From positions 3,712,342-3,776,341 of the forward strand of contig CAWJCK010000003.1 in assembly GCA_963841345.1 (NCBI GenBank): a stretch of 64,000 nucleotides of DNA, read 5' to 3'. Positions 11,621-59,012 of this stretch are shown here, one piece after another. This DNA comes from an uncultured Acidobacteriaceae bacterium. GTDB lineage: Bacteria > Acidobacteriota > Terriglobia > Terriglobales > Acidobacteriaceae. The notes under the pieces were generated by a model. The model was not told the DNA's origin, ran no database searches, and saw nothing but the letters and a program-made list of their open reading frames with translations. Position numbers and translations under genes: made by a program. Position 1 is the stretch's first letter, and each line of letters opens with the position of its first letter.

Positions 11621-12034
11621 ATGGCCGCGAACACCAGATTCTGCACCGGAATCCATACTTTAGTCCTGCTTGCCGCAGATCCCGATGTTCAGCAAACTTC
11701 GGACGAGATAGCCCGCAAACTGAATACCAATCCAGTCGTCATTCGTAGAGTACTATCATTGCTGCGGCAGGCGGGCCTGGTCAGCAGCCAGAAAGGCCCG
11801 AGCGGCGGTTCGAAGCTGGCCAAGCCAGGCAAGGCGATTAAGCTCGGCGACATCTACCGGGCGCTTGAACCAGTCTCGATCTTCCCTGGCTCGAACCTCA
11901 CTGGCGACCATGCGGACAAGGTGAATGGAGCGCTCGAAAAGATCTACCGCGACGCCCAGGAAGCGCTCGAGGCGGAGCTTGATGGCACAACACTCAACCA
12001 ACTGGCAAAGAAGTCCGAAAAGAAGAAGAAATAG
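11621..12034 (+). CDS. Rrf2-family transcriptional regulator (no Fe-S Cys cluster)
   Basis: TSDEIARKLNTNPVVIRRVLSLL..AGLVSSQKGPSGG. Confidence 0.88.
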   Translation: MAANTRFCTGIHTLVLLAADPDVQQTSDEIARKLNTNPVVIRRVLSLLRQAGLVSSQKGPSGGSKLAKPGKAIKLGDIYRALEPVSIFPGSNLTGDHADKVNGALEKIYRDAQEALEAELDGTTLNQLAKKSEKKKK

Positions 12035-12325
12035 CCATCAGCATAACCCCAGCGATTCCGCGGCGTTCCCCCGAACCATCCTCCAGTCTCGCCCCGAGGG
12101 GCCGACTGCCGGGCGTGGCTTCCGATCTGCGTAAGATTTACGGTGTGGTAACAAATCCGTTGCCGCCGCGCGACTTATTTTCAAGAATTGCGTCCCAGTG
12201 GAGTGGAAGTCTTCGCGGAGGGCGCGGAGGCAACGACACAGGACGATGACGGGGTCTATCATGACCAACGAGTTCACTCGACGTCTTAATGCTGTTTAGC
12301 TTTTCATTTTTTTAAACGAGGCGCA

Positions 12326-15300
12326 ATGCAAAGGTCTTTCGGTCGTTTCTCAGGGTTCTCTCTAGTTGTGCTGTCTATCGCTGTTCTGAGTCTCTCTGCT
12401 GCATCCCATGCGTCCGCGCAGGACCGGATCGTCGAGGCTATCGAAAATGGCAAAGTATCGGCGCTGCCGGGGACAATGCATCCTCTGGCGCAGGCCCGAT
12501 TCGATCAGGGCCCGCTCGACGGCGGTCGAAGGCTGCCGGGAATGAGTATCGATTTTCAGCGCACTCCAGCTCAACAGTCGGCGCTGGCGGCGCTGTTAAA
12601 AGCTCAGCTGGATCCCTCGTCGCCCAGCTACCATCACTGGCTCACAGCGGAGGAGTTTGGCGCCCAATTCGGGATGAGCCACTCGGACATCGGAAAGGCT
12701 ACGGCGTGGCTGCAGTCTCAGGGTTTCACCATTGACAAAGTGGCCGACAGCCAAAATTCCATTCGTTTCAGTGGCATGGTAGCGCAGGCCGAGGCGGCTT
12801 TTCACACGCAAATCCACAAGTACACAGTGAACGGTCAGGTACATTTCGCCAATTCGACAGCAGTGTCGCTGCCTCAGGCGCTGGCCTCCAGCGTGATCCA
12901 TGTCGGAGGTCTGAACAATTTCGGCCCCAAACCAGGCAACGTGCGCCCGAATAACCTTAGATCTGGGCCCAAACCAGCTTTTACTTCAGGATCGAATGCT
13001 CCGGATGCGGGCAGCCACTATCTGGCGCCCAGCGATTTTGCGATCATTTACGACTTGAATCCGCTTTATACCGCAGGCTTCAACGGTTCCGGGCAAACGA
13101 TTGGGATCATGGGCCAGACGGACATCGTGATGGCCGACATCACCGATTTCCGCACCAATGCGCAGTTGCCGGCTTACAACACAACGGGCAACCCCACGTT
13201 CACCAGCTACCTGATTCCAGGTGCAACCGATCCCGGGGTTCAGTATCTCTCGGGCGACGTTAACGAGGCCGATCTCGATATCGAGTGGTCAGGCGGCGTT
13301 GCGCCAAATGCCAACATACTCTTCGTAATCTCGAGCGAGGACGAGATTTTCGACGCGTTGCAGTATGCGATCGAGAACACGATCAATGGCTTGCAGGTGC
13401 CGATCCTCAGTATCAGCTACGCGGGCTGCGAAGCTGCACAATCCACTGCCGCGATACAAAGCCTCGAAGCAAGTTTTCAGCAGGCGAATGTCCAGGGGCA
13501 GACGGTCATAAACTCCTCCGGAGACTCGGGCGCGGCGGCGTGCGACGATCAAACAGAAATAGTAACCTCCGCCGTCCAGGGTTTAGCGGTGAACTATCCA
13601 GCCAGCAGCGCCTACGTGACCGGTCTCGGCGGCAGCGAATTCATGGGTGACGGCACCGCCGCGAATCCCTCGACTGGGGCTGATCAATATTGGTTGGGCA
13701 CGGGATCGACTGACCTGTTGACCTCGGCCAAGTCTTATATCCCGGAGGGAGCATGGAACGACACTGCTTTTGTAATCCCCCTTGGCGGCGGTCTCTCGGC
13801 CGGCGGCGGTGGTAAGAGTATTCTTTTCACCAAGCCAAGCTGGCAGGCAGGCGTCCCCGGGATTCCGAACGACAATGCGCGCGACGTGCCGGACCTCTCC
13901 CTGAGTGCTTCCGCAGACCATGACGGCTATCTGGTTTGCACCCAGATTATTCTTGCCTCCGACGACAACCCAGATCCGACCAGTGCCGACTTCACTTCCA
14001 GTTGCAGCGTTGGATTCAGGATCTCCGATCCTAATTACGCAGGCCCGCCGGACGAAGACGATAACGGCTATCCGACTATCTACGGTGGGACCTCGGTCGC
14101 CGCGCCGAGCTTCGCCGGAATTCTTGCCCTGATCGAGCAGAAGCTAGGCACCCCTTTGGGGAATATCAATCCGACCCTCTACACGCTGGCGTCGAATTCC
14201 GCCACCTATGCCTCGGCTTTCCACGACATCACAACGGGCAATAATGAGGTGCCGTGCACAAGCGGGTCGCCAAACTGCCCCACCAGCGGCACACAGGTGA
14301 TCGGCTACGTGGCGGGCACCGGATATGACGAGGCGACCGGGCTTGGTTCCGTCGATGGAAACGAGTTGGCTATCGCGTTTGGGACAGTCGAAACCAAGGC
14401 AGGAACCACTACCGGGGTTGTCTTGACGCCGACAGCTCCGGTGGTGGGTCAGGCAATAACGCTAAGCGCTACCATTAAACCCAACACCGGCAGCGCTACA
14501 GCGCCAACCGGCACCGTGATTTTCTCGGTTGACGGCGTCGCGGTGAACACCGCCGATGTGACGGCTGGCACCGCGACGTATTCCCCGTACAGCTTCTCGA
14601 CCGGCGGGACGCATACGATCACGGCGGCGTATTCGGGCGACTCGAACTACTTCGCTTCAACGACCACGTCGACCGTCACGGTCACCGCGGCTTCAACTGC
14701 GGCGCCGACGACAACTACTCTCTCCACGGGGGGAGTGACCACCGTCGCCCTTAACCAAGGATCGATCACGCTCACGGCGACAGTCACGTCGGCTACAGCG
14801 GGGACGATAGCCGGGCAAGTTGAGTTCACGATCGGCACGGTCACCCTTGCGCCGGTCCAAGTGACGTCCGGAGCGAGCGGTTCCGCAACGGCATCGACGA
14901 CGGTTGCTGCAACAGCCGCCAACGGATTCACGGCCGGAACCACCTCGATTTCAGCTGCGTACGGCGGCGATTCGGCTTATTCCGGATCGGCTTCAACAGC
15001 GACGGTGATTTCGGTCACCAATCCGGCTCTGACGATGACGGTGGCGAACATGACCATCTCCGGATCCGCGCCCGGCAATACGGGGACATCGGCGATTTCG
15101 ATTACCTCGACCGGCGGGTATGCGGGAACGGTGAACCTTACGGCAACGGCAACGACGCTGGATGCGAGTTATTCCATCACGCCCACTTCGGTCTCGATCG
15201 CCAGCGGCGGGACCGGAACGGCGTCGATCAGCATCCAGACAATCGCCTCAGACATCAGGAAGGGCGTGAACGGCAATCTGAGGAGGGCGACGACAAGCAA

Positions 15301-27698: not shown

Positions 27699-29744
27699 AT
27701 GGCCGATAAGCGAAAAGTCCATCTTCGACTGGTATCCTCAAACCAGCGACCCGCCATGACTCCCCGCATCCCAAGGCACCACACCAACGGCCACTTCGTC
27801 GTCACGCGCACCACGGAACCAACCCCGTTGGAAGAGACCCAGACCCATTTCTCCACCCTCAAAGTCTGGGTGCTTCTCGTCGCAATCTTCTTCTCCGTCC
27901 ACGTCGCCGCACTCTTCTCGCCGCCGCTCCTCGACGACGCCGACGCCGCCCACGCCCAGGTCGCTAAACACATCGCCCAGACCGGAGACTGGGTCACCTT
28001 CTACATCGACGGCGTCCGCTACCTCGAAAAAGCCCCACTTCCCTACTGGATCGTCGCGCTCGACTACCGCCTCTTCGGCTACAACGTCTTCGCCACCCAC
28101 CTGCCCGAGGCCCTCGGAATCCTCGGCTGCACCATCCTCGCCTGGGTCTGGGCCCGCCGCGCTTTCGGCGAACGCGCCGCCTTCTACGCCGCCCTCGGCA
28201 TCCTCACCTGCGTCGGAGCCTTCCTCTTCACCCGCATCTTCATCCCCGAGGTCCTGCTCACCCTCTTCACCGCGCTCGCGCTCTACTTCCTCATCACCGG
28301 CCTCGAAGATCGCAAGCCCGCCAATATCTACTGGATGTGGGCCTCGCTCGCCCTCGGCGTCCTCACCAAGGGCCTCGTCACGCCCGTCTTCTTCGCCGCG
28401 GCGACAGTTCCCTACCTCATCCTCACCGGAACCTGGCGCAGATGGCGCGAACTCCGCCCAGTAACCGGACTCCTGCTCTTCCTCGCCATCGCCGCGCCCT
28501 GGCACATCCTCGCCGGCCTTCGCAATCCCGATCAGGGCCATCCCGTCGGCAACATCCCCTCACCCGGAAACGTCCACGGCTTCTTCTACTTCTATTTCCT
28601 CAACGAACATCTCTTCCGCTTCCTCGGCACCCGCTACCCCCACGACTACAACAAGCTCCCCGGCTACCTCTACTGGACACTCCACATCATCTGGCTCGCC
28701 CCTTGGAGCCTCTTCGCTCCGGTCCTCATCCTCCGCGCCTGGCAGACCCGCGAACACTGGCTCAGCGACCTCCCCGCCGCCAGCGGCCGCACCGTCGACT
28801 TCTATATCGAGAAAGCCCACCTCGTCGACCCCGCCAGCCACATGGCGCGCACCAAGTTCCGCACCCGCACCAACTGGCTCCTCGCCTTCTACGCCGCCTT
28901 CGTCCTGGTCTTCTTCTCCATCTCGACCAATCAGGAGTACTACACCTTCCCCGCCTACTTCCCGCTCATCGTCCTCGGCGCCGGGTCCCTCGCCCGCGCC
29001 GAAGAATACCCCGGAACCCCGCGCGCCTGGCTCACCTGGTGCCACGCCGCCTTCGCCGTCATCGGAGTCGCCGCCGCCATCGCCCTCGGCTACGGCCTCT
29101 TCACCTCCCGCGGAATCCCCACCGCACCCGACATCGGCTCGGCCATCGCCCATCGCGAAGTCGCCGGATACTCCCTCTCCATGGCCCACATCTTCGACCT
29201 CACCGGGCCATCCTTCGCCGCCCTCCGCGAACCCGCCCTCATCGCCATGATGGCCTTCCTCGTCGGCCCGCTCCTCGCCTGGACCCTCCGCCGCCGCGGC
29301 CACCACCTCGAAGCCACCACCTCCGTCGGATTCACCGCCGCCGTCTTCCTCATCGCCGCCCACATCGCCCTCGTCCGCTTCGAGCCCCTCATGTCCTCCA
29401 AGCCCATCGCCGACACCATCAACCACCTCGCCAAGCCTGAAGACCACTTACTCCTCTACGGAGACCAGTCCGACGGCTCCTCGATCATCTTCTACACCAA
29501 TAGACAAGCCCTATTAGTCGACGGCCGCCGAAGCACCCTGGTATGGGGATCGTTTTACCCCGACGCCCCCAAGATATTCATGACGGATAATGACTTAGTA
29601 ACTAGATGGGGCAAAGCAGAAAGAAACTTCCTCTTCGTCCCCGAAGACAGCCACGATCATGTCGAAGCGCTACTGGGAAGCCAAGCCATCGAAATCCAAA
29701 ACCTCGCCGGGAAGACGCTCTACACCGATAGGCCATTGGATTAG
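27699..29744 (+). CDS. ArnT/GT39-family glycosyltransferase
   Basis: LLDDADAAHA, YLEKAPLPYW, LTKGL; multiple TM; start uncertain. Confidence 0.88.
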   Translation: MADKRKVHLRLVSSNQRPAMTPRIPRHHTNGHFVVTRTTEPTPLEETQTHFSTLKVWVLLVAIFFSVHVAALFSPPLLDDADAAHAQVAKHIAQTGDWVTFYIDGVRYLEKAPLPYWIVALDYRLFGYNVFATHLPEALGILGCTILAWVWARRAFGERAAFYAALGILTCVGAFLFTRIFIPEVLLTLFTALALYFLITGLEDRKPANIYWMWASLALGVLTKGLVTPVFFAAATVPYLILTGTWRRWRELRPVTGLLLFLAIAAPWHILAGLRNPDQGHPVGNIPSPGNVHGFFYFYFLNEHLFRFLGTRYPHDYNKLPGYLYWTLHIIWLAPWSLFAPVLILRAWQTREHWLSDLPAASGRTVDFYIEKAHLVDPASHMARTKFRTRTNWLLAFYAAFVLVFFSISTNQEYYTFPAYFPLIVLGAGSLARAEEYPGTPRAWLTWCHAAFAVIGVAAAIALGYGLFTSRGIPTAPDIGSAIAHREVAGYSLSMAHIFDLTGPSFAALREPALIAMMAFLVGPLLAWTLRRRGHHLEATTSVGFTAAVFLIAAHIALVRFEPLMSSKPIADTINHLAKPEDHLLLYGDQSDGSSIIFYTNRQALLVDGRRSTLVWGSFYPDAPKIFMTDNDLVTRWGKAERNFLFVPEDSHDHVEALLGSQAIEIQNLAGKTLYTDRPLD

Positions 29745-29924
29745 CCAATTCTCGAGTAGGATTTTAAGAGGATATACTAGGGCGCGTTCACACTAATCTC
29801 AGTGCTTCGACGATAAGAGCGAAGTAGAGAAAAGCGACGAAGACGACATCGAGTTTCTCAAATCGCGAGAAGATACGGCGGAAGCCTTTCAGTCTGGACG
29901 GGTGGCCCACCCAACCACCATCGA

Positions 29925-30001
29925 GGGTGCCCCATCATTCCGCGCGACCGGGGCCCCCAGCGACAGGTCTTCGTCGCTGGGGTGGTTGGCGGAAGGGTGG
30001 G
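29925..30001 (+). repeat. REP palindrome (GGGTGCCCCAT family) left of RAYT, containing a 37-nt hairpin insert
   Basis: GGGTGCCCCATCATTCCGC...GCGGAAGGGTGGG; inverted copy at 30597-30634. Confidence 0.8.
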
Positions 30002-30081
30002 CGGAGCAAGTCTCCCGTCCTCGGTATCCGATCTAAACCCCTCCATCCACAAAAATGGGGCGATAAGACTAGACTTCCATT

Positions 30082-30594
30082 GTGCCCAAACATCTCGTCC
30101 GCTATCAAAACTCCACGGACTTCCATTTTCTGACCTTCAGTTGTTATCGACGACTCCCTTTGTTAGCCAGAGGAGAAGGCTATCAAGTCTTCGAAGAAGA
30201 GTTGGAACGAGTAAGGCAGCGTTACGAAATGATAGTCACGGGATATGTGCTCATGCCCGAGCACGTCCATCTCTTAGTGAGTGAACCACCCAAAGGGATC
30301 CTCGCCACAGCCATCCAGGCCTTGAAACATCAATCATCGCGAAGGCTAAAACGTCCAGACGATCCCCAATTTTGGCAACGCCGCTACTTCGACTTCAATG
30401 TCTGGAGGCAAGCCAAAATCTGGGAGAAGTTGAACTACATGCACCAGAATCCTGTCGCCCGAGGACTTGTCACGAAGGCCGAAGATTGGCCTTGGTCGAG
30501 CGTTCGCCACTGCACGACAGGTGAGGTGGGAACGATCGAGATCGAATCAGAATGGACGGCGCGAAAACGAGAACTCGAACATAGACATCTGTGA
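30082..30594 (+). mobile_element. REP-associated tyrosine transposase (RAYT, Y1 HUH)
   Basis: HFLTFSCY, VLMPEHVHLL (HUH), FWQRRYFD, LNYMHQNPV (catalytic Tyr), EDWPWSS; flanked by inverted REPs. Confidence 0.9.
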
Positions 30595-30596
30595 AA

Positions 30597-30634
30597 CCCA
30601 CCCTTCCGCACAAGCGCGGAATGATGGGGCACCC
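30597..30634 (-). repeat. REP palindrome right of RAYT
   Basis: CCCACCCTTCCGCACAAGCGCGGAATGATGGGGCACCC. Confidence 0.8.
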
Positions 30635-30733
30635 TCATCGCCGGGTGCTCCGCACTTCAACCCAACCTGCCTTTTTGGTTACACTGAGCGGGTTGTGCAA
30701 ATCGATGGATGATACTTCTTCAAGGGAGATTGC

Positions 30734-31162
30734 ATGAACGCAGCAAAAACACTAGCTCTTGCCGTCGTGCTCATCGTGTCCCCGATCTATGCGGCGGAGA
30801 AATATCCTCCACTTCCGGCAAGTGTGATAGCGGCAAAAACCGTGTTCATCGACAATAAAACGGGGTACACGCAGGTTACAGACAAGGCCTACGAGGCATT
30901 AAGTAAGTGGGGACGATACAAAATCGTGAAGGACGCAAAGGACGCCGATCTGGTCCTTCGCTTCACGGCAGACACTGAGGGCAGACCAACCCCTCCAGGC
31001 AACAACATCGATCAATCCCCCACCCCCATAGTTCTCTCCGTACGCGACCAAACGAATAATGAAGTCTGGAATGTATCGAAGAACCAGCCGTTTCATAGTC
31101 AAACGACCCTGGATATCGATGAATTCAAAAAGCGTGTCGAAGCACAAGCGAAAGGCAAATAA
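30734..31162 (+). CDS. Hypothetical secreted protein
   Basis: Signal peptide; AKTVFIDN...KWGRYKIV...DADLVL. Confidence 0.65.
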   Translation: MNAAKTLALAVVLIVSPIYAAEKYPPLPASVIAAKTVFIDNKTGYTQVTDKAYEALSKWGRYKIVKDAKDADLVLRFTADTEGRPTPPGNNIDQSPTPIVLSVRDQTNNEVWNVSKNQPFHSQTTLDIDEFKKRVEAQAKGK

Positions 31163-54812: not shown

Positions 54813-55475
54813 CGCCTCAGCCGCACTAACCCGCGAATCGGACCGCCTCCCAAATCATGGAGCGACCCCCAAATTTGAGACAGAGTAAGAAGTCCCCATT
54901 TTGATGGAATGGAGGCTTTGGATGAGTCGGAAGTATCGGGTATGGAGTTTGTTGGAGAAGCGGGCAGCGGTTGACCGGATGGGGAAGGAGAAGCACGGTG
55001 AACTGGCGGCCGAGCTGGGGATCTCGAAGCGGCAGCTGTATGCCTGGCGGGACCTTTTTCGGCGTTTGAGGGAGACGGCGAAGAAAGAAGGCAGCCGGGA
55101 GCGGGCCTTGGAGGGGGAGAACCGGAAGCTGAAAGAGGCGCTGGCGACCAAGGTGCTGGAAGCGGATTTCTTACAAGGTGTGTTGCGCAGAATCGAGGCT
55201 CGACGCCAGCCGACCAGCGGCTCCGGCGAGACTGCATCTACGAAGAGGTCCGAGTGATGCGGTCTGCAGCGCACCTTAGCATCGAGTCCATGTGCCGTCT
55301 GGGGCAGGTCAGCCGGGCGGGGTTTTATCGTCATTGGAAGCAGCATGAGCCGCGCGTCGAGCAGGCCGAGCTGCGCGCGCGGATGCACCAGATCGTGCTC
55401 ACCCACCGGCGCAACTATGGTTATCGCCGGGTCACGCAGGAGCTGCGCAACCAGGGCTGGGCGGTGAACCACAAA

Positions 55476-55512
55476 CCGGGTCCCCACGGACAGGTCTTCG
55501 TCCGTGGGGTGG
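55476..55512 (+). repeat. 37-nt hairpin element inserted in IS3 orfB
   Basis: Removing 55476-55515 restores AVNHK-RVARLM; AAA on both sides. Confidence 0.8.
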
Positions 55513-55891
55513 AAACGGGTGGCGCGGCTGATGGCCGAGGACAACCTGCTGTGCCTGCGCAAGCGCAGCTTCGTTCGCACCACCGACTCCGGCCACGATC
55601 TGCGCGTCTGGGTAAACCTGGCCAGCCGCATGCAGCTGACCGGGATCGACCAGCTCTGGGTGGCCGACCTCACCTTCCTCCGGCTGGCCGAGGAGTTCCT
55701 CTATCTGGCCGTGGTGCTGGACGCCTTCTCGCGCCGCGTGCTTGGCTGGGCGCTGGACCAGCGGCTGGATGCAAGGCTTGCGGTGGCCGCTCTGCGCCAG
55801 GTGTTATCGGTAATCTAAAATTCCCCAGATTCGGCGTTTGAAAAATCCCCAGTTGAGGACAAACCGATCATTCTGACCGAGGAGGGTCGGG

Positions 55892-57151
55892 ATGGTGCGA
55901 CTGGAGGGTTTCATGGAGATACAGCAGCTTCATCACGACGGGGTCAGCGTCAGCGAGATAGCACGGCGATTGGCCCTGGACCGCAAGACGGTTCGGAAGT
56001 ACCTGCGTCAGGCGCCACGAGAGTACGAGCGCGTGCCTAAGAGTTGGAAGGTGGATCCTTTTCGCTCCTATCTTCGGGAACGCTGGGAGTTGGGCGTACA
56101 CAACGCGACGCGCTTGTTTGTGGAGATCCGCAAGCGCGGGTATGACGGTTGTCTTACACAGGTGAAGACCGTAGTGCGGCCGTGGCGAAGCGAAGGCCAG
56201 GAGCGGGCGTTCGTCCGCTTTGAGACCGCACCCGGCGAGCAGGCGCAGATGGACTGGGGCCACTTCGGCAACTGGGACGGCAAGCGGCTGTACGGATTTG
56301 CACTGACCCTGTGCTGGTCGCGGATGCAGTACGTGGAGTTCACCCAGCGGCAGGATGCGGAGACGTTGTTGAACTGCATGATGCACGCGATGACGTTCTT
56401 CGGCGGTATCCCGGCGACGGTGCTGACCGACAACATGAAGACGGTGATCCTGGACCGGATTGATGGTCAGCCGCGCTTTCATCCGAAGATGCTGGACTTC
56501 GCCAGCTACTACGGTTTCCTACCGCGGGTCTGCCATCCATATAGGCCACAGACCAAGGGCAAGATCGAGTCCACGATCCGCTACATCAAGGGCAGCTTCT
56601 GGCCAGGCCTAAGCTTCGATTCGCTCGAGGAGCTGAACCGGCTGGCGCTGGTCTGGTGCGAAGAAGCCAACCGGAGGGTCCATGCCACCACCCGCGAGGT
56701 TCCTCTGCAGCGCTTCCCTCACGAAGGGCTGATGCCGTTAAACGGCCAGCCTGCCTATGACACCAGCTATGTGAGCCATCGCCAGGTCGCGAAGGACTGC
56801 CTGGTGGCCTATCGCGGCAACCGTTACTCGGTGCCGCATGTCCACGCCGGCAAGAACGTCGTTGTTCGCGAGCCGCTCGACTCGGGCACGATCCGTATCT
56901 TTTCTCAGCAGGAACTAATCGCTGAACATCGTCTGTCCACGCGGCGCGGAGAGATGGTCGTGGAGCGGTCCCACTATGCCAGCCTGCCGCGAAGATTGCG
57001 TCTGCCGCGCTTCCGCGCAGATCGTCGGATCGTAGAGCTGACACCCGGTCCGGGAGTTGGCCTCCACTATGTGGCACCAGAGGTGGAGTTCCGGCCGCTG
57101 TCGATCTACCAGTCGATCTGTGAGGAGGTGGCCCATGTCGCTTCAGTCTGA
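55892..57151 (+). CDS. istA: IS21 transposase IstA
   Basis: RFETAPGEQAQMDW, LTDNMK, PQTKGKIE. Confidence 0.95.
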   Translation: MVRLEGFMEIQQLHHDGVSVSEIARRLALDRKTVRKYLRQAPREYERVPKSWKVDPFRSYLRERWELGVHNATRLFVEIRKRGYDGCLTQVKTVVRPWRSEGQERAFVRFETAPGEQAQMDWGHFGNWDGKRLYGFALTLCWSRMQYVEFTQRQDAETLLNCMMHAMTFFGGIPATVLTDNMKTVILDRIDGQPRFHPKMLDFASYYGFLPRVCHPYRPQTKGKIESTIRYIKGSFWPGLSFDSLEELNRLALVWCEEANRRVHATTREVPLQRFPHEGLMPLNGQPAYDTSYVSHRQVAKDCLVAYRGNRYSVPHVHAGKNVVVREPLDSGTIRIFSQQELIAEHRLSTRRGEMVVERSHYASLPRRLRLPRFRADRRIVELTPGPGVGLHYVAPEVEFRPLSIYQSICEEVAHVASV

Positions 57152-57917
57152 ACGCCTGCTCAACCACATGCAGGGTCTGCGCCTGACTCATCTGCCCTAC
57201 TGCTACGAAGCACTTGCCGAAGAGGCATCCGTGAAGGACCTCCCCTACCTTGAGTTCCTCGAGCAGGCGCTGGAGGCGGAGAGTCAGGCCAAGCATACCC
57301 GGAACGTGCGGCTGAAAACCCAGTGGGCCCACTTTCCCTATAAGAAAGGACTGGATCAGTTCGACTTCGCCTTCCAGCCGTCGGTGGACGAACGCAAGTT
57401 GCGGGAACTGGCTGGCCTGGCTTTCCTCGAACGCAAGGAGAACGTGCTGCTGCTCGGACCGCCGGGGGTGGGGAAGACCCATCTCGGCATCGCGCTCGGC
57501 ACCGAAGCCATCGTGGCCGGCTTCTCCGTCTATTTCCTCACCATGCAGGATCTGGTTCAGCAGTTCCAGCGCGCCCGCGACGAGAACAAGCTGAAGGAGA
57601 GGATGGCCCTGCTGGTCAAGCCCAAGCTGTTGATCCTCGATGAGATCGGCTATCTGTCGCTGGACTCCTTCGCTGCCACCTGCCTCTTCCAGCTGGTCAG
57701 CGAGCGATACGAAAAAGGCTCGATCATCCTGACCTCGAACAAGAGCTACGGCGATTGGGGCTCCATCTTCGCCGACAACGTCATCGCCTCGGCCATCCTG
57801 GACCGGCTGCTCCATCACTCCACCACCATCAACATCAAGGGCGAGAGCTATCGGCTCAAAGACAAGAAAAAGGCCGGCGTCATCACCGCAAAACTGCCTG
57901 CAAAGGACGGAGGCTAG
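57135..57917 (+). CDS. istB: IS21 helper ATPase IstB
   Basis: GPPGVGKTH, LILDEIGY, TSN..W...F, AILDRLLHH. Confidence 0.95.
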   Translation: MSLQSERLLNHMQGLRLTHLPYCYEALAEEASVKDLPYLEFLEQALEAESQAKHTRNVRLKTQWAHFPYKKGLDQFDFAFQPSVDERKLRELAGLAFLERKENVLLLGPPGVGKTHLGIALGTEAIVAGFSVYFLTMQDLVQQFQRARDENKLKERMALLVKPKLLILDEIGYLSLDSFAATCLFQLVSERYEKGSIILTSNKSYGDWGSIFADNVIASAILDRLLHHSTTINIKGESYRLKDKKKAGVITAKLPAKDGG

Positions 57918-59012
57918 ATCGCCACAGTCCGCGCGGAAGCATGCGGCTCCGGGCTCTGCCCTCCGCCGCATCCTTCCGCCACACCTTAACTCGCCTCAGG
58001 CTGGGGAATTTTCAAGCGTCCCTAAGTGGGGAATTTTCAGTTGACGATGACACCAGGCGATCGACCTGCGCCAGCCTGCCCCAGGCCTGGTGCATCACTC
58101 TGACCGCGGCGTGCAGTACGCCTCCAATGCCTATGTCGAGCTGCTGCTCGAGCACGGCATCGCACCCAGCATGAGCCGGGCCGGCAACCCGTACGACAAC
58201 GCAAAGTGCGAGAGCTTCCTCAAGACCCTCAAGCAGGAGGAGATCTACACTCGGCAATATCGCGACCAGGCCGATCTGGAGGCCCACATCGGCCAGTTCC
58301 TGGAGCGGTATTACAATCGCAAGCGGCTGCACTCGGCGCTCAACTACCGGACGCCAGAGCAGTTCGAACAAAGTCTGTTAGCCAGCCCGGCAGCGGTGCC
58401 GGTACCAAGCATGAGTTTTTTCAGGCATGGGGGAATCTATCGTCCCGATGTTCACCGACAAGCCGGGGAGGAGCCGTTATGACCCCTCCCCAGCCCATCG
58501 CTCTTACCGCCCATCGGTGCGATGAGTTCCAGCCGGGTATTCCTTGGCGAATTGCTCTCCAGCAGAACCCGCCTCCGCTTCCCCGGCCAACCTCAGCCTG
58601 CAACAGCAACTCCCGTTCGCCAAGAAAATCCCAGCGAGCGGCGCAAAGGGACTTCTCTCGCTGTCTCACCCCAGGGGGTCACTCCACCGTGTCAAGTACC
58701 TTCCTCGACAACACCGCACCCTAACCTCAGTGATCCCAGCCACTTAGAAGCAAAAAATAGTTGGCACAGTGAACCACCCCAACTTGATAAACTGGATATA
58801 GGGTTCAAGAAAAAGATTGGGAACCTCAAAGGCAACTGCCGCTGAAGCTGTCGAAGGGTTCGTTATCTGTGTTCACGGCTAATTCGTCGAAAAAAGGATT
58901 TTGAAGCACGCCCCAGACAGAATCAAGATTTATGCCAAAAATGGGCTCCCCAAGCCGCTGAAACTAAAGAACTAAGGCAGTAATAGGGGGGAGGGGGGGT
59001 ACCCCCAATCCA

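Follow-up and report, generated by a model that had tools for sequence, protein, structure and literature searches.

A 38-nt hairpin unit of Acidobacteriaceae that probably inserts as a discrete, REP-sized mobile element

A hairpin unit beside a RAYT-like gene and within an IS3 element

The window analysed here, a stretch of 64,000 nucleotides, comes from the genome of an uncultured Acidobacteriaceae bacterium, which we call G000 and which is assembled in three contigs (C1, C2 and C3). It holds two copies of a short hairpin unit, one in a REP next to a RAYT-like transposase gene and the other in orfB of an IS3-family element. The features of both sites are as follows (positions are those of the window).

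29923 to 30001, plus strand: left REP, with the tag GAGGGTG and the arms CCCCATCATTCCGCGC / GCGGAAGGGTGGG; it hosts copy 1, and the composite forms one long hairpin of -26.9 kcal/mol
29948 to 29985, plus strand: hairpin unit, copy 1, 38 nt, in the loop of the left REP; CC GGGGC CCCC AGCGAC aggtcttc GTCGCT GGGG TGG, 66.5 bits with the covariance model
30082 to 30594, plus strand: ORF of a RAYT-like Y1 (HUH) transposase, 170 aa; PF01797, 50.6 bits (cut-off 23)
30597 to 30636, minus strand: right REP, inverted, with arms as in the left REP and a 4-nt, insert-free loop
54856 to 58817, plus strand: host IS3-family element (orfA and orfB), split by an IS21-type insertion at about 55802-58052
55473 to 55475, plus strand: left copy of the duplicated target AAA (AAAC when the unit's first C is included), from the alignment with C3:1204901-1205125
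55476 to 55512, plus strand: hairpin unit, copy 2, 37 nt, with the stem ACGGAC/GTCCGT, in orfB of the IS3-family element
55513 to 55515, plus strand: right copy of the duplicated target AAA, from the filled/empty alignment

A preliminary description of this DNA had reported a hairpin at 29949-29985, and the sequence there reads exactly as stated. By comparing many copies we have set the start of the unit one base upstream, so that it begins with CC and its limits become 29948-29985. The second copy of that description, with a compensated stem, the same loop and the same GGGGTGG end, is present at 55476-55512 (CCGGGTCCCCACGGACAGGTCTTCGTCCGTGGGGTGG), and its 5' tag is one G shorter than that of copy 1. 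Both copies share an identical 8-nt loop and an identical GGGGTGG end, while their stems differ by two compensated pairs (AGCGAC/GTCGCT vs ACGGAC/GTCCGT). The pattern CCCC-N6-AGGTCTTC-N6-GGGGTGG matches twice in the 64-kb window, against 0.00 matches expected from 100 shuffles. As single-stranded DNA, each copy is predicted to fold into a 10-bp hairpin of -12.5 kcal/mol (z about -3.5). An Rfam scan of 29700-30800 (E<=10) gave only a chance match to Chlorobi-1, with 12.7 bits, and no family match.

Considering all copies, the general form of the unit is 5'-CC GGGG Y CCCC / 6-nt arm / 8-9-nt loop / 6-nt arm / GGGG T GG-3'. The ends, 5'-CCGGGGYCCCC and GGGGTGG-3', are invariant and not symmetric (CCGGGGY-CCCC vs CCA-CCCC), and the inner 6-bp stem varies freely yet stays paired. 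The 150 distinct unit sequences contain 82 distinct arm pairs, almost always complementary; 97% of the cells of the seed alignment are paired, and none of 500 shuffles reached its covariation score. Loops in this genus read (A/G)GGTCTTC or CGGTCTYTG. Units from other genera have a different stem and loop and a total length of 34-43 nt, with the termini (CCGGGGTCCCC...GGGGTGG) unchanged, and hence we regard the termini as the conserved recognition part. When copies were located from their termini only, the arms contained 65 G.T mismatches and 10 A.C mismatches. Since G.T far exceeds A.C, the strand that folds should be the CC...GG strand, as DNA or as RNA. One could argue that a replication-linked mutation bias produced this excess; we rejected this by reasoning, since the G-to-A change expected on the C-rich strand would yield A.C.

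Regarding the RAYT locus, the loop of the left REP holds copy 1, and the right REP has the same arms as the left one and a short loop, now measured as 4 nt, all of which bears out the preliminary description. The orthologous RAYT loci of two sister genomes, G005 and G002 (loci L022 and L023; protein identities of 74% and 73%), have the same left REP but with an empty loop, ccgcgcTTTTTgcgg (TTTTT). The left REP of G000 reads ccgcgcGA[unit]TTGgcgg, and the flanks of the unit, GA and TTG, make no clean target duplication. The RAYT gene is flanked by a different REP, and the hairpin unit is just an insert in one of the two.

Copies, empty sites and target duplications

The genome-wide search proposed in the preliminary description brought up further copies. 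With a covariance model built from 26 sequences (E<=0.01), we found about 105 copies in nine genomes of the genus: 25 in G002, 21 in G000, 18 in G001, 14 in G007, 9 in G003, 8 in G004, 7 in G005, 2 in G006 and 1 in G008. In a sample of the family with one genome per genus, 17 of 61 genomes had a match, and the matches were strong in five. A search of public genomes with the exact pattern gave at least 120 loci, nearly all of them in Terracidiphilus, Tunturibacter, Silvibacterium and other Acidobacteriaceae. One perfect copy, with CTCA duplicated, lies on a contig binned as an uncultured Gammaproteobacteria (L095), which is either a mis-binned contig or a case of horizontal transfer.

The unit is hosted by at least six families of repeats. 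Many copies of G000 are passengers in amplified composites, such as the 285-bp array at C3:3220300-3225500 and the array of about 400 bp at C2:397500-398900; both arrays are built from several nested palindromic modules, the hairpin unit among them. Because most G000 copies belong to such composites, independent insertions must be far fewer than copies. The unit also forms head-to-tail arrays with a period of 41-44 nt, which equals the unit plus the duplication. Array L139 consists of six copies with a period of 42 nt and AAAG in common, and the three copies of L099 have AGTAA in common; further arrays were found at L140, L105, L136, L131, L190 and L002. At L081, L147 and L172, the unit lies in tandem heptamer repeats of the CCCTGTT/CCCTATT type, with CTG duplicated. 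Further copies of genome G048 (L222 and L223) are apparently inside coding sequences that we take to be transposase-like, with the motifs ...ANVAWLRLAVIAH... and ...TSK^PVALLLADMGVTKTH... (here and below, ^ marks a junction), and these contexts suggest IS genes as frequent hosts.

The comparison of filled and empty sites, also proposed in the preliminary description, revealed both paralogous and orthologous empty sites. Copy 2 sits in the IS3 orfB after the Lys codon of ...GWAVNHK^RVARLMAE..., and an identical filled copy lies on C2. The filled site reads aaccacAAA^unit^AAAcgggtgg, with AAAcgggtggcg as right flank, and the empty form is aaccacAAAcgggtgg. An empty IS3 copy at C3:1204901-1205125 has aaccacAAAcgggtggcg at the site and a single mismatch in 225 nt (99% identical); it is without the 40 nt, and its reading frame is intact, ...GWAVNHKRVARLMAE... 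Since this 99%-identical paralogue without the 40 nt keeps the ORF, we can conclude that AAA was duplicated at the IS3 site. Both IS3 copies have also received IS21-type elements: the one bearing copy 2 at 55802-58052 (istA ORF at 55892-57151), and the empty one at C3:1.205 Mb, which is split by the same kind of element at another position.

A second type of host is a membrane-protein gene of G007, which reads ggcGGAA^unit^GGAAcaagctgg. The insertion of 42 nt (38+4) is in frame, duplicates GGAA and adds TGVPGDRSSSLGWG to the protein, while the G000 orthologue (71% protein identity) is empty and reads ggtGGAAcaagctgg. Further filled/empty pairs with G000 gave duplications of AAAT (L084), of AAG (L055) and of GAAGG (L012, whose host repeat is empty at C3:2331045), as well as AAG/AAT at L037, within a hairpin loop that is empty on C1. 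The genic empty sites are all intact conserved ORFs, so the filled state is the derived one. Empty sites could in principle arise by precise deletion between short direct repeats, but this has to be set against the fact that the empty states are intact conserved ORFs. The 40-nt insertions shift the frame in two of the three measured IS3 orfB cases, and an in-frame case was seen once only, in G007.

Other explanations of these inserts were considered and rejected. Translational bypass, with the AAA codons at the IS3 insert as take-off and landing sites, fails in a G002 copy that is without matching codons in the right frame. An in-frame GTG within the 3' arm is no sign of function, as it follows from the insertion phase. 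Regarding templated repair from a donor together with its flanks, the duplicated bases derive from the target.

The IS3 codon occupied by copy 2 has been hit repeatedly. Lineage A is filled twice and empty once in G000, and empty in both copies of G005; lineage B, which is about 85% identical to A, is filled in one copy of G002 and empty in three. Within A and B alike, the filled form is most similar to empty copies from the same lineage, and the differences between A and B are, on inspection, largely synonymous, which argues that both evolved as functional empty elements. Lineage C, with about 30% protein identity, is filled in G008 by a unit with another stem and loop, and is represented in G000 by three empty copies on C2. 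Its unit is placed after the homologous Lys codon (GWEVNAK^RIYRIY vs GWAVNHK^RVARLM). The three hits at this one IS3 codon are independent, and either target specificity or selection would account for them.

To quantify the duplications, we fixed the boundaries of the unit at CC and GG and compared 184 non-redundant contexts with 2000 permutations of the flanks. An exact flanking repeat of at least 3 nt was found in 34 of the 184 contexts, compared with 7.8 ± 2.6 after permutation (maximum 18), and one of at least 4 nt in 18, compared with 1.9 ± 1.4 (maximum 8). Repeat lengths were 3 nt in 16 contexts, 4 nt in 13, 5 nt in three, and 6 and 7 nt in one each. No exact flanking repeat was present in 103 of the 184 contexts, among them that of copy 1 in the REP loop. 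The duplicated flanks vary by site (AAA, GGAA, GAAG, AAAT, CTCA and others), and the reconstructed targets follow C^RRR(R)^C, in which purines fill -3 to -1 and a C stands on either side, at -4 and at +1. Of 166 contexts, 33 had flanks that could pair over 6 bp or more within 16 nt, in comparison with 8.7 ± 2.8 in the control; because of this excess, we consider the preference for loops of other palindromes to be real but partial.

Strand polarity and replication

At every locus examined in G000, the CC...GG strand of the unit is on the C-rich strand. Along C3 the unit is oriented '-' as far as 3.29 Mb and '+' from 3.74 Mb onwards, and GC skew changes sign at about 3.725 Mb. In the other genomes, the CC...GG strand was on the C-rich strand at 86 of 122 loci (p=7e-6), and at 58 of 70 when only loci with an absolute skew >0.06 were counted (p=2e-8), keeping in mind that skew measured over 3-8 kb predicts the sign of the regional skew only about 82% of the time in G000. 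Only about 52% of the predicted genes are on the G-rich (leading) strand, and for this reason we rejected gene-strand bias or direction of transcription as the cause of the polarity. Other small repeats of G000, present at 30597-30636 and many further loci, are as polar or more so and lie almost always on the C-rich strand, namely GGGTGCCCCA (87 of 94) and GTCATCCTGAG (95 of 98). Among contexts with a duplication of at least 3 nt, the polarity holds in only 21 of 30. The polarity may be a property of the whole class of small repeats, or be inherited in part from the host repeats.

The dnaA gene is at 0.618 Mb (C3:617778-618260), and the cumulative GC-skew minimum, at 1.4 Mb, is some 0.8 Mb away. 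As dnaA does not coincide with this minimum, the absolute assignment of leading and lagging strands, made by GC skew alone, is uncertain. In this three-contig assembly C3 shows four changes of skew sign, which, together with the dnaA offset, suggest large inversions or assembly joins. Within the window, the skew in 25-kb bins goes from +0.09 to -0.10 at about 12000-13500 (the sign changes near 12.6 kb), which is the cumulative-skew maximum of C3. Since this maximum falls inside it, the window probably holds the replication terminus region.

Mobility of the unit and comparison with known systems

According to these results, the unit is probably a REP-sized, 38-nt, non-autonomous mobile element of Acidobacteriaceae that inserts as a discrete unit. 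Insertion duplicates 3-4 nt (rarely 5) of the target, with a preference for C^RRR(R)^C. Its landing sites include loops of other palindromic repeats, above chance, as well as IS transposase genes and, in frame, one ordinary gene, and the inserted unit is afterwards multiplied passively within composite repeats and head-to-tail arrays. The hairpin is probably recognised as a folded single strand, CC...GG, with G.T tolerated and A.C not. Because this strand is almost always on the C-rich strand, as in other REP families, insertion or retention may be coupled to replication. The enzyme presumably acts in trans. As to its nature, we give modest weight to a Y1 HUH enzyme of the RAYT/TIRYT class and somewhat less to a DDE enzyme with a 3-4-nt stagger, and leave the remainder, a large share, to further routes (reverse transcription and break repair, for example). 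A Y1 enzyme could be reconciled with the duplications, speculatively, if the hairpin were joined into the nascent strand at the fork and a few template bases were copied again, or through repair.

The preliminary description had interpreted the unit as structure-selected, independently mobile and far smaller than a MITE, and this part of its reading is supported by the filled/empty pairs, the duplications, the covariation and the many unrelated hosts. The unit has further copies and empty sites and is not always part of a larger repeat, though many copies have been amplified in composites. The proposal that the adjacent RAYT mobilises it has fared worse, given duplications of 3-4 nt and a copy number that does not follow Y1_Tnp. 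Taken further, that proposal would make the unit a minimal REP: at the replication fork the RAYT would recognise its tag and hairpin in single-stranded form, excise it by a cut at either side and insert it elsewhere. We regard it as possible, though we lean against it. The tag and stem start of the unit, GGGGTCCCCA, is identical at 8 of 10 positions to the GGGTGCCCCA of the RAYT-flanking REPs, and its stem is kept in structure and not in sequence, with wobble on one strand, in line with the way in which the hairpins of IS200/IS605 and REPs are read (PMC3333891, PMC3479197). The strong polarity, common to the REP families of this genome, would also fit. IS608-type elements are coupled to the lagging-strand template (PMC3333891), and Y1_Tnp occurs widely in the family (56 of 61 genera). 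However, the better-folding strand is on the C-rich strand, which is not the one expected for the lagging-strand template, and Y1 enzymes of the IS200/IS605 type insert without target duplication (PMC2817692), while the duplications found here are target-derived and vary between sites. Copy number speaks against the proposal too. Y1_Tnp gave no match in G048 (100% complete, 4 strong copies), G001 (80% complete, 18 copies) and G006; G007, with 14 copies, has only IS200-type genes and no RAYT homologue at 1e-20; and G008 has a RAYT yet only one copy.

Duplications of 3-4 nt would fit a minimal MITE, that is, two abutted terminal inverted repeats of an IS moved in trans by a DDE enzyme with 3-4-nt staggered cuts. 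IS3-family enzymes make such cuts, and IS1397 and ISKpn1, of the same family, target REP loops. This model would also explain the preference for palindrome loops, a unit that begins with CC and ends with GG, and head-to-tail arrays that share the duplication. Nevertheless, we consider it unlikely, as the arms vary with compensation (82 pairs) and carry G.T on one strand, which fits a folded strand and not a double-stranded binding site; the two ends are not symmetric, and a duplex of 38 bp would be too short to bend into a two-end synapse. About 7 Mb, made up of the G000 genome and some 1 Mb of loci, yielded no IS with matching ends, nor any longer element that had the termini of the unit together with a duplication of 4 nt or more. 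Half-sites resembling GGGGTCCCCAGCGAC, sought as the end of an IS, and distant CCGGGG.CCCC...GGGGTGG pairs led only to mini-elements and arrays. The IS3 element of the window was rejected as parent, its ends beginning TGGAGTGACCCCC, unlike the unit, and a Tn3-like origin (GGGG ends and 5-bp duplication) was discarded for want of GGGG at the start of the right end.

One could also argue that the unit is not itself mobile and that a functional motif (a protein site, an RNA or terminator-like signal, or a replication signal) has been spread by gene conversion, templated repair or repeat amplification, the empty sites being slippage deletions. Most copies do lie inside amplified larger repeats (the 285-bp and about 400-bp arrays), over half of the contexts are without a duplication, the polarity is common to all the other small repeats, as for a polar chromosomal signal, and occupation of the same IS3 codon in three lineages could reflect selection for an effect on the IS. 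We find this very unlikely in view of insertions that break intact conserved ORFs, with a clearly ancestral empty state, and of exact, identical boundaries at unrelated sites. In addition, the duplication is target-derived and donor flanks are not copied, IS3 lineages A and B diverged mostly synonymously, as functional empty elements would, and Rfam offers no family. The least probable alternative is a spread through RNA, in which the transcribed CC...GG strand would fold with G.U pairs and be reverse-transcribed into nicked or replicating DNA, leaving short duplications of variable length. Wobble pairs on one strand only, duplications of 3 to 5 and rarely 6-7 nt and the polarity with respect to replication agree with it, and endonuclease-less retrotransposition of group II introns shows such a polarity. 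The exact ends, with no tail or 5' truncation, do not; G.T is tolerated in DNA hairpins too, and most copies are in repeats without an evident promoter.

Within the preferred reading, of a discrete mobile element, a more specific version would place the unit in a class of its own among very small transposable elements. In this version, one tagged hairpin of 38 nt would enter the DNA at replication forks in the form of a folded single strand, through a domesticated enzyme or one encoded by the host, and would leave a 3-4-nt duplication; its targeting would be site-specific, the same Lys codon (GW.VN.K^R) having been hit in three IS3 lineages. This version is doubtful at present, and we put it forward as a conjecture. 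If it were true, a REP-type element would for the first time offer an insertion signature that can be read, REP spread could be studied directly, and the unit would be a parasite or a silencer of insertion sequences.

Independently of the enzyme, the 38-base unit is among the smallest elements with clear signs of mobility, and if it truly moves as 38 nt, the size limit for mobile elements that generate duplications falls by about half. REP-sized insertions normally leave no readable trace. Because the unit has exact boundaries, duplications, empty sites, a target consensus and polarity, mechanisms can be tested on a defined substrate. The hits at the IS3 codon and the in-frame insert of 14 codons in the membrane protein show that the unit alters genes, and in the annotation of Acidobacteriaceae genomes such inserts show up as frameshifts or odd insertions.

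Among known systems, the IS200/IS605 elements (IS608, ISDra2) resemble the unit in a hairpin that is read by its shape, in strand specificity and in an orientation tied to replication, the bias of the unit being based on GC skew. They differ in having two different subterminal hairpins and tnpA, and in inserting 3' of a fixed tetra- or pentanucleotide with no duplication, whereas the flanks of the unit vary and are duplicated. The Rickettsia palindromic elements (RPE) are likewise palindromic and found in frame in protein-coding genes (PMC3733652), but they measure about 100-150 bp, and the unit is in frame once only.

REPs and REPINs with their RAYT or TIRYT (PMC2817692, PMC3116915, PMC3733652, PMC8266576) share more traits with the unit: a length of 20-40 nt, a G+C-rich imperfect palindrome with a short tag at its foot, a compensated stem, nesting in palindromes, occasional in-frame sites in ORFs, and clusters and arrays; copy 1 even lies in a RAYT-adjacent REP. 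REPs nested in palindromes and in frame in ORFs have been described before, as have acidobacterial Y1 genes flanked by inverted repeats (PMC3733652), and the spread of REPs has been called mechanistically unknown (PMC8266576). The unit, in contrast, has the tag CCGGGGY...GGGGTGG and not GTAG or CGTC, although its GGGGY resembles the GGGTG of the local REPs. It is a single hairpin instead of a doublet, has a low copy number (1-25 per genome), does not flank a single-copy RAYT in inverted orientation, and its abundance does not follow any particular Y1 gene. Its insertions also carry 3-4-nt duplications that derive from the target and have given five clean pairs of filled and empty sites, and in the REP/REPIN literature searched we found no report of either for REP-sized units.

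The bacterial MITEs (Correia/NEMIS, RUP, ERIC, Nezha, MITEAba12; PMC3184786) are, like the unit, non-autonomous, hairpin-capable, flanked by short target duplications and located near or in genes. They are, however, 70-400 bp long, with sequence-conserved terminal repeats of 15-30 bp traceable to a parent IS, while the unit has 34-43 nt and arms that vary freely with compensation.

Finally, Nostoc and other cyanobacteria carry small dispersed repeats (SDRs), which Elhai et al. (2008, Genome Res; cited in PMC3116915) reportedly described as hairpin units of 21-27 nt with compensatory changes, nested in other repeats, tandem heptamers included. Their presence or absence among members of a host repeat family was reportedly taken as evidence of mobility, the mechanism being unknown. 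They belong to another phylum and have no sequence relationship to the unit, and neither a consistent target duplication nor a replication polarity is known for them. By this description, the unit resembles SDRs in being a compensated hairpin of no more than 40 nt, nested in repeats (the heptamers of L081, L147 and L172) and absent from a member of its host repeat family at C3:2331045, and cyanobacterial SDRs are the nearest description to the unit.
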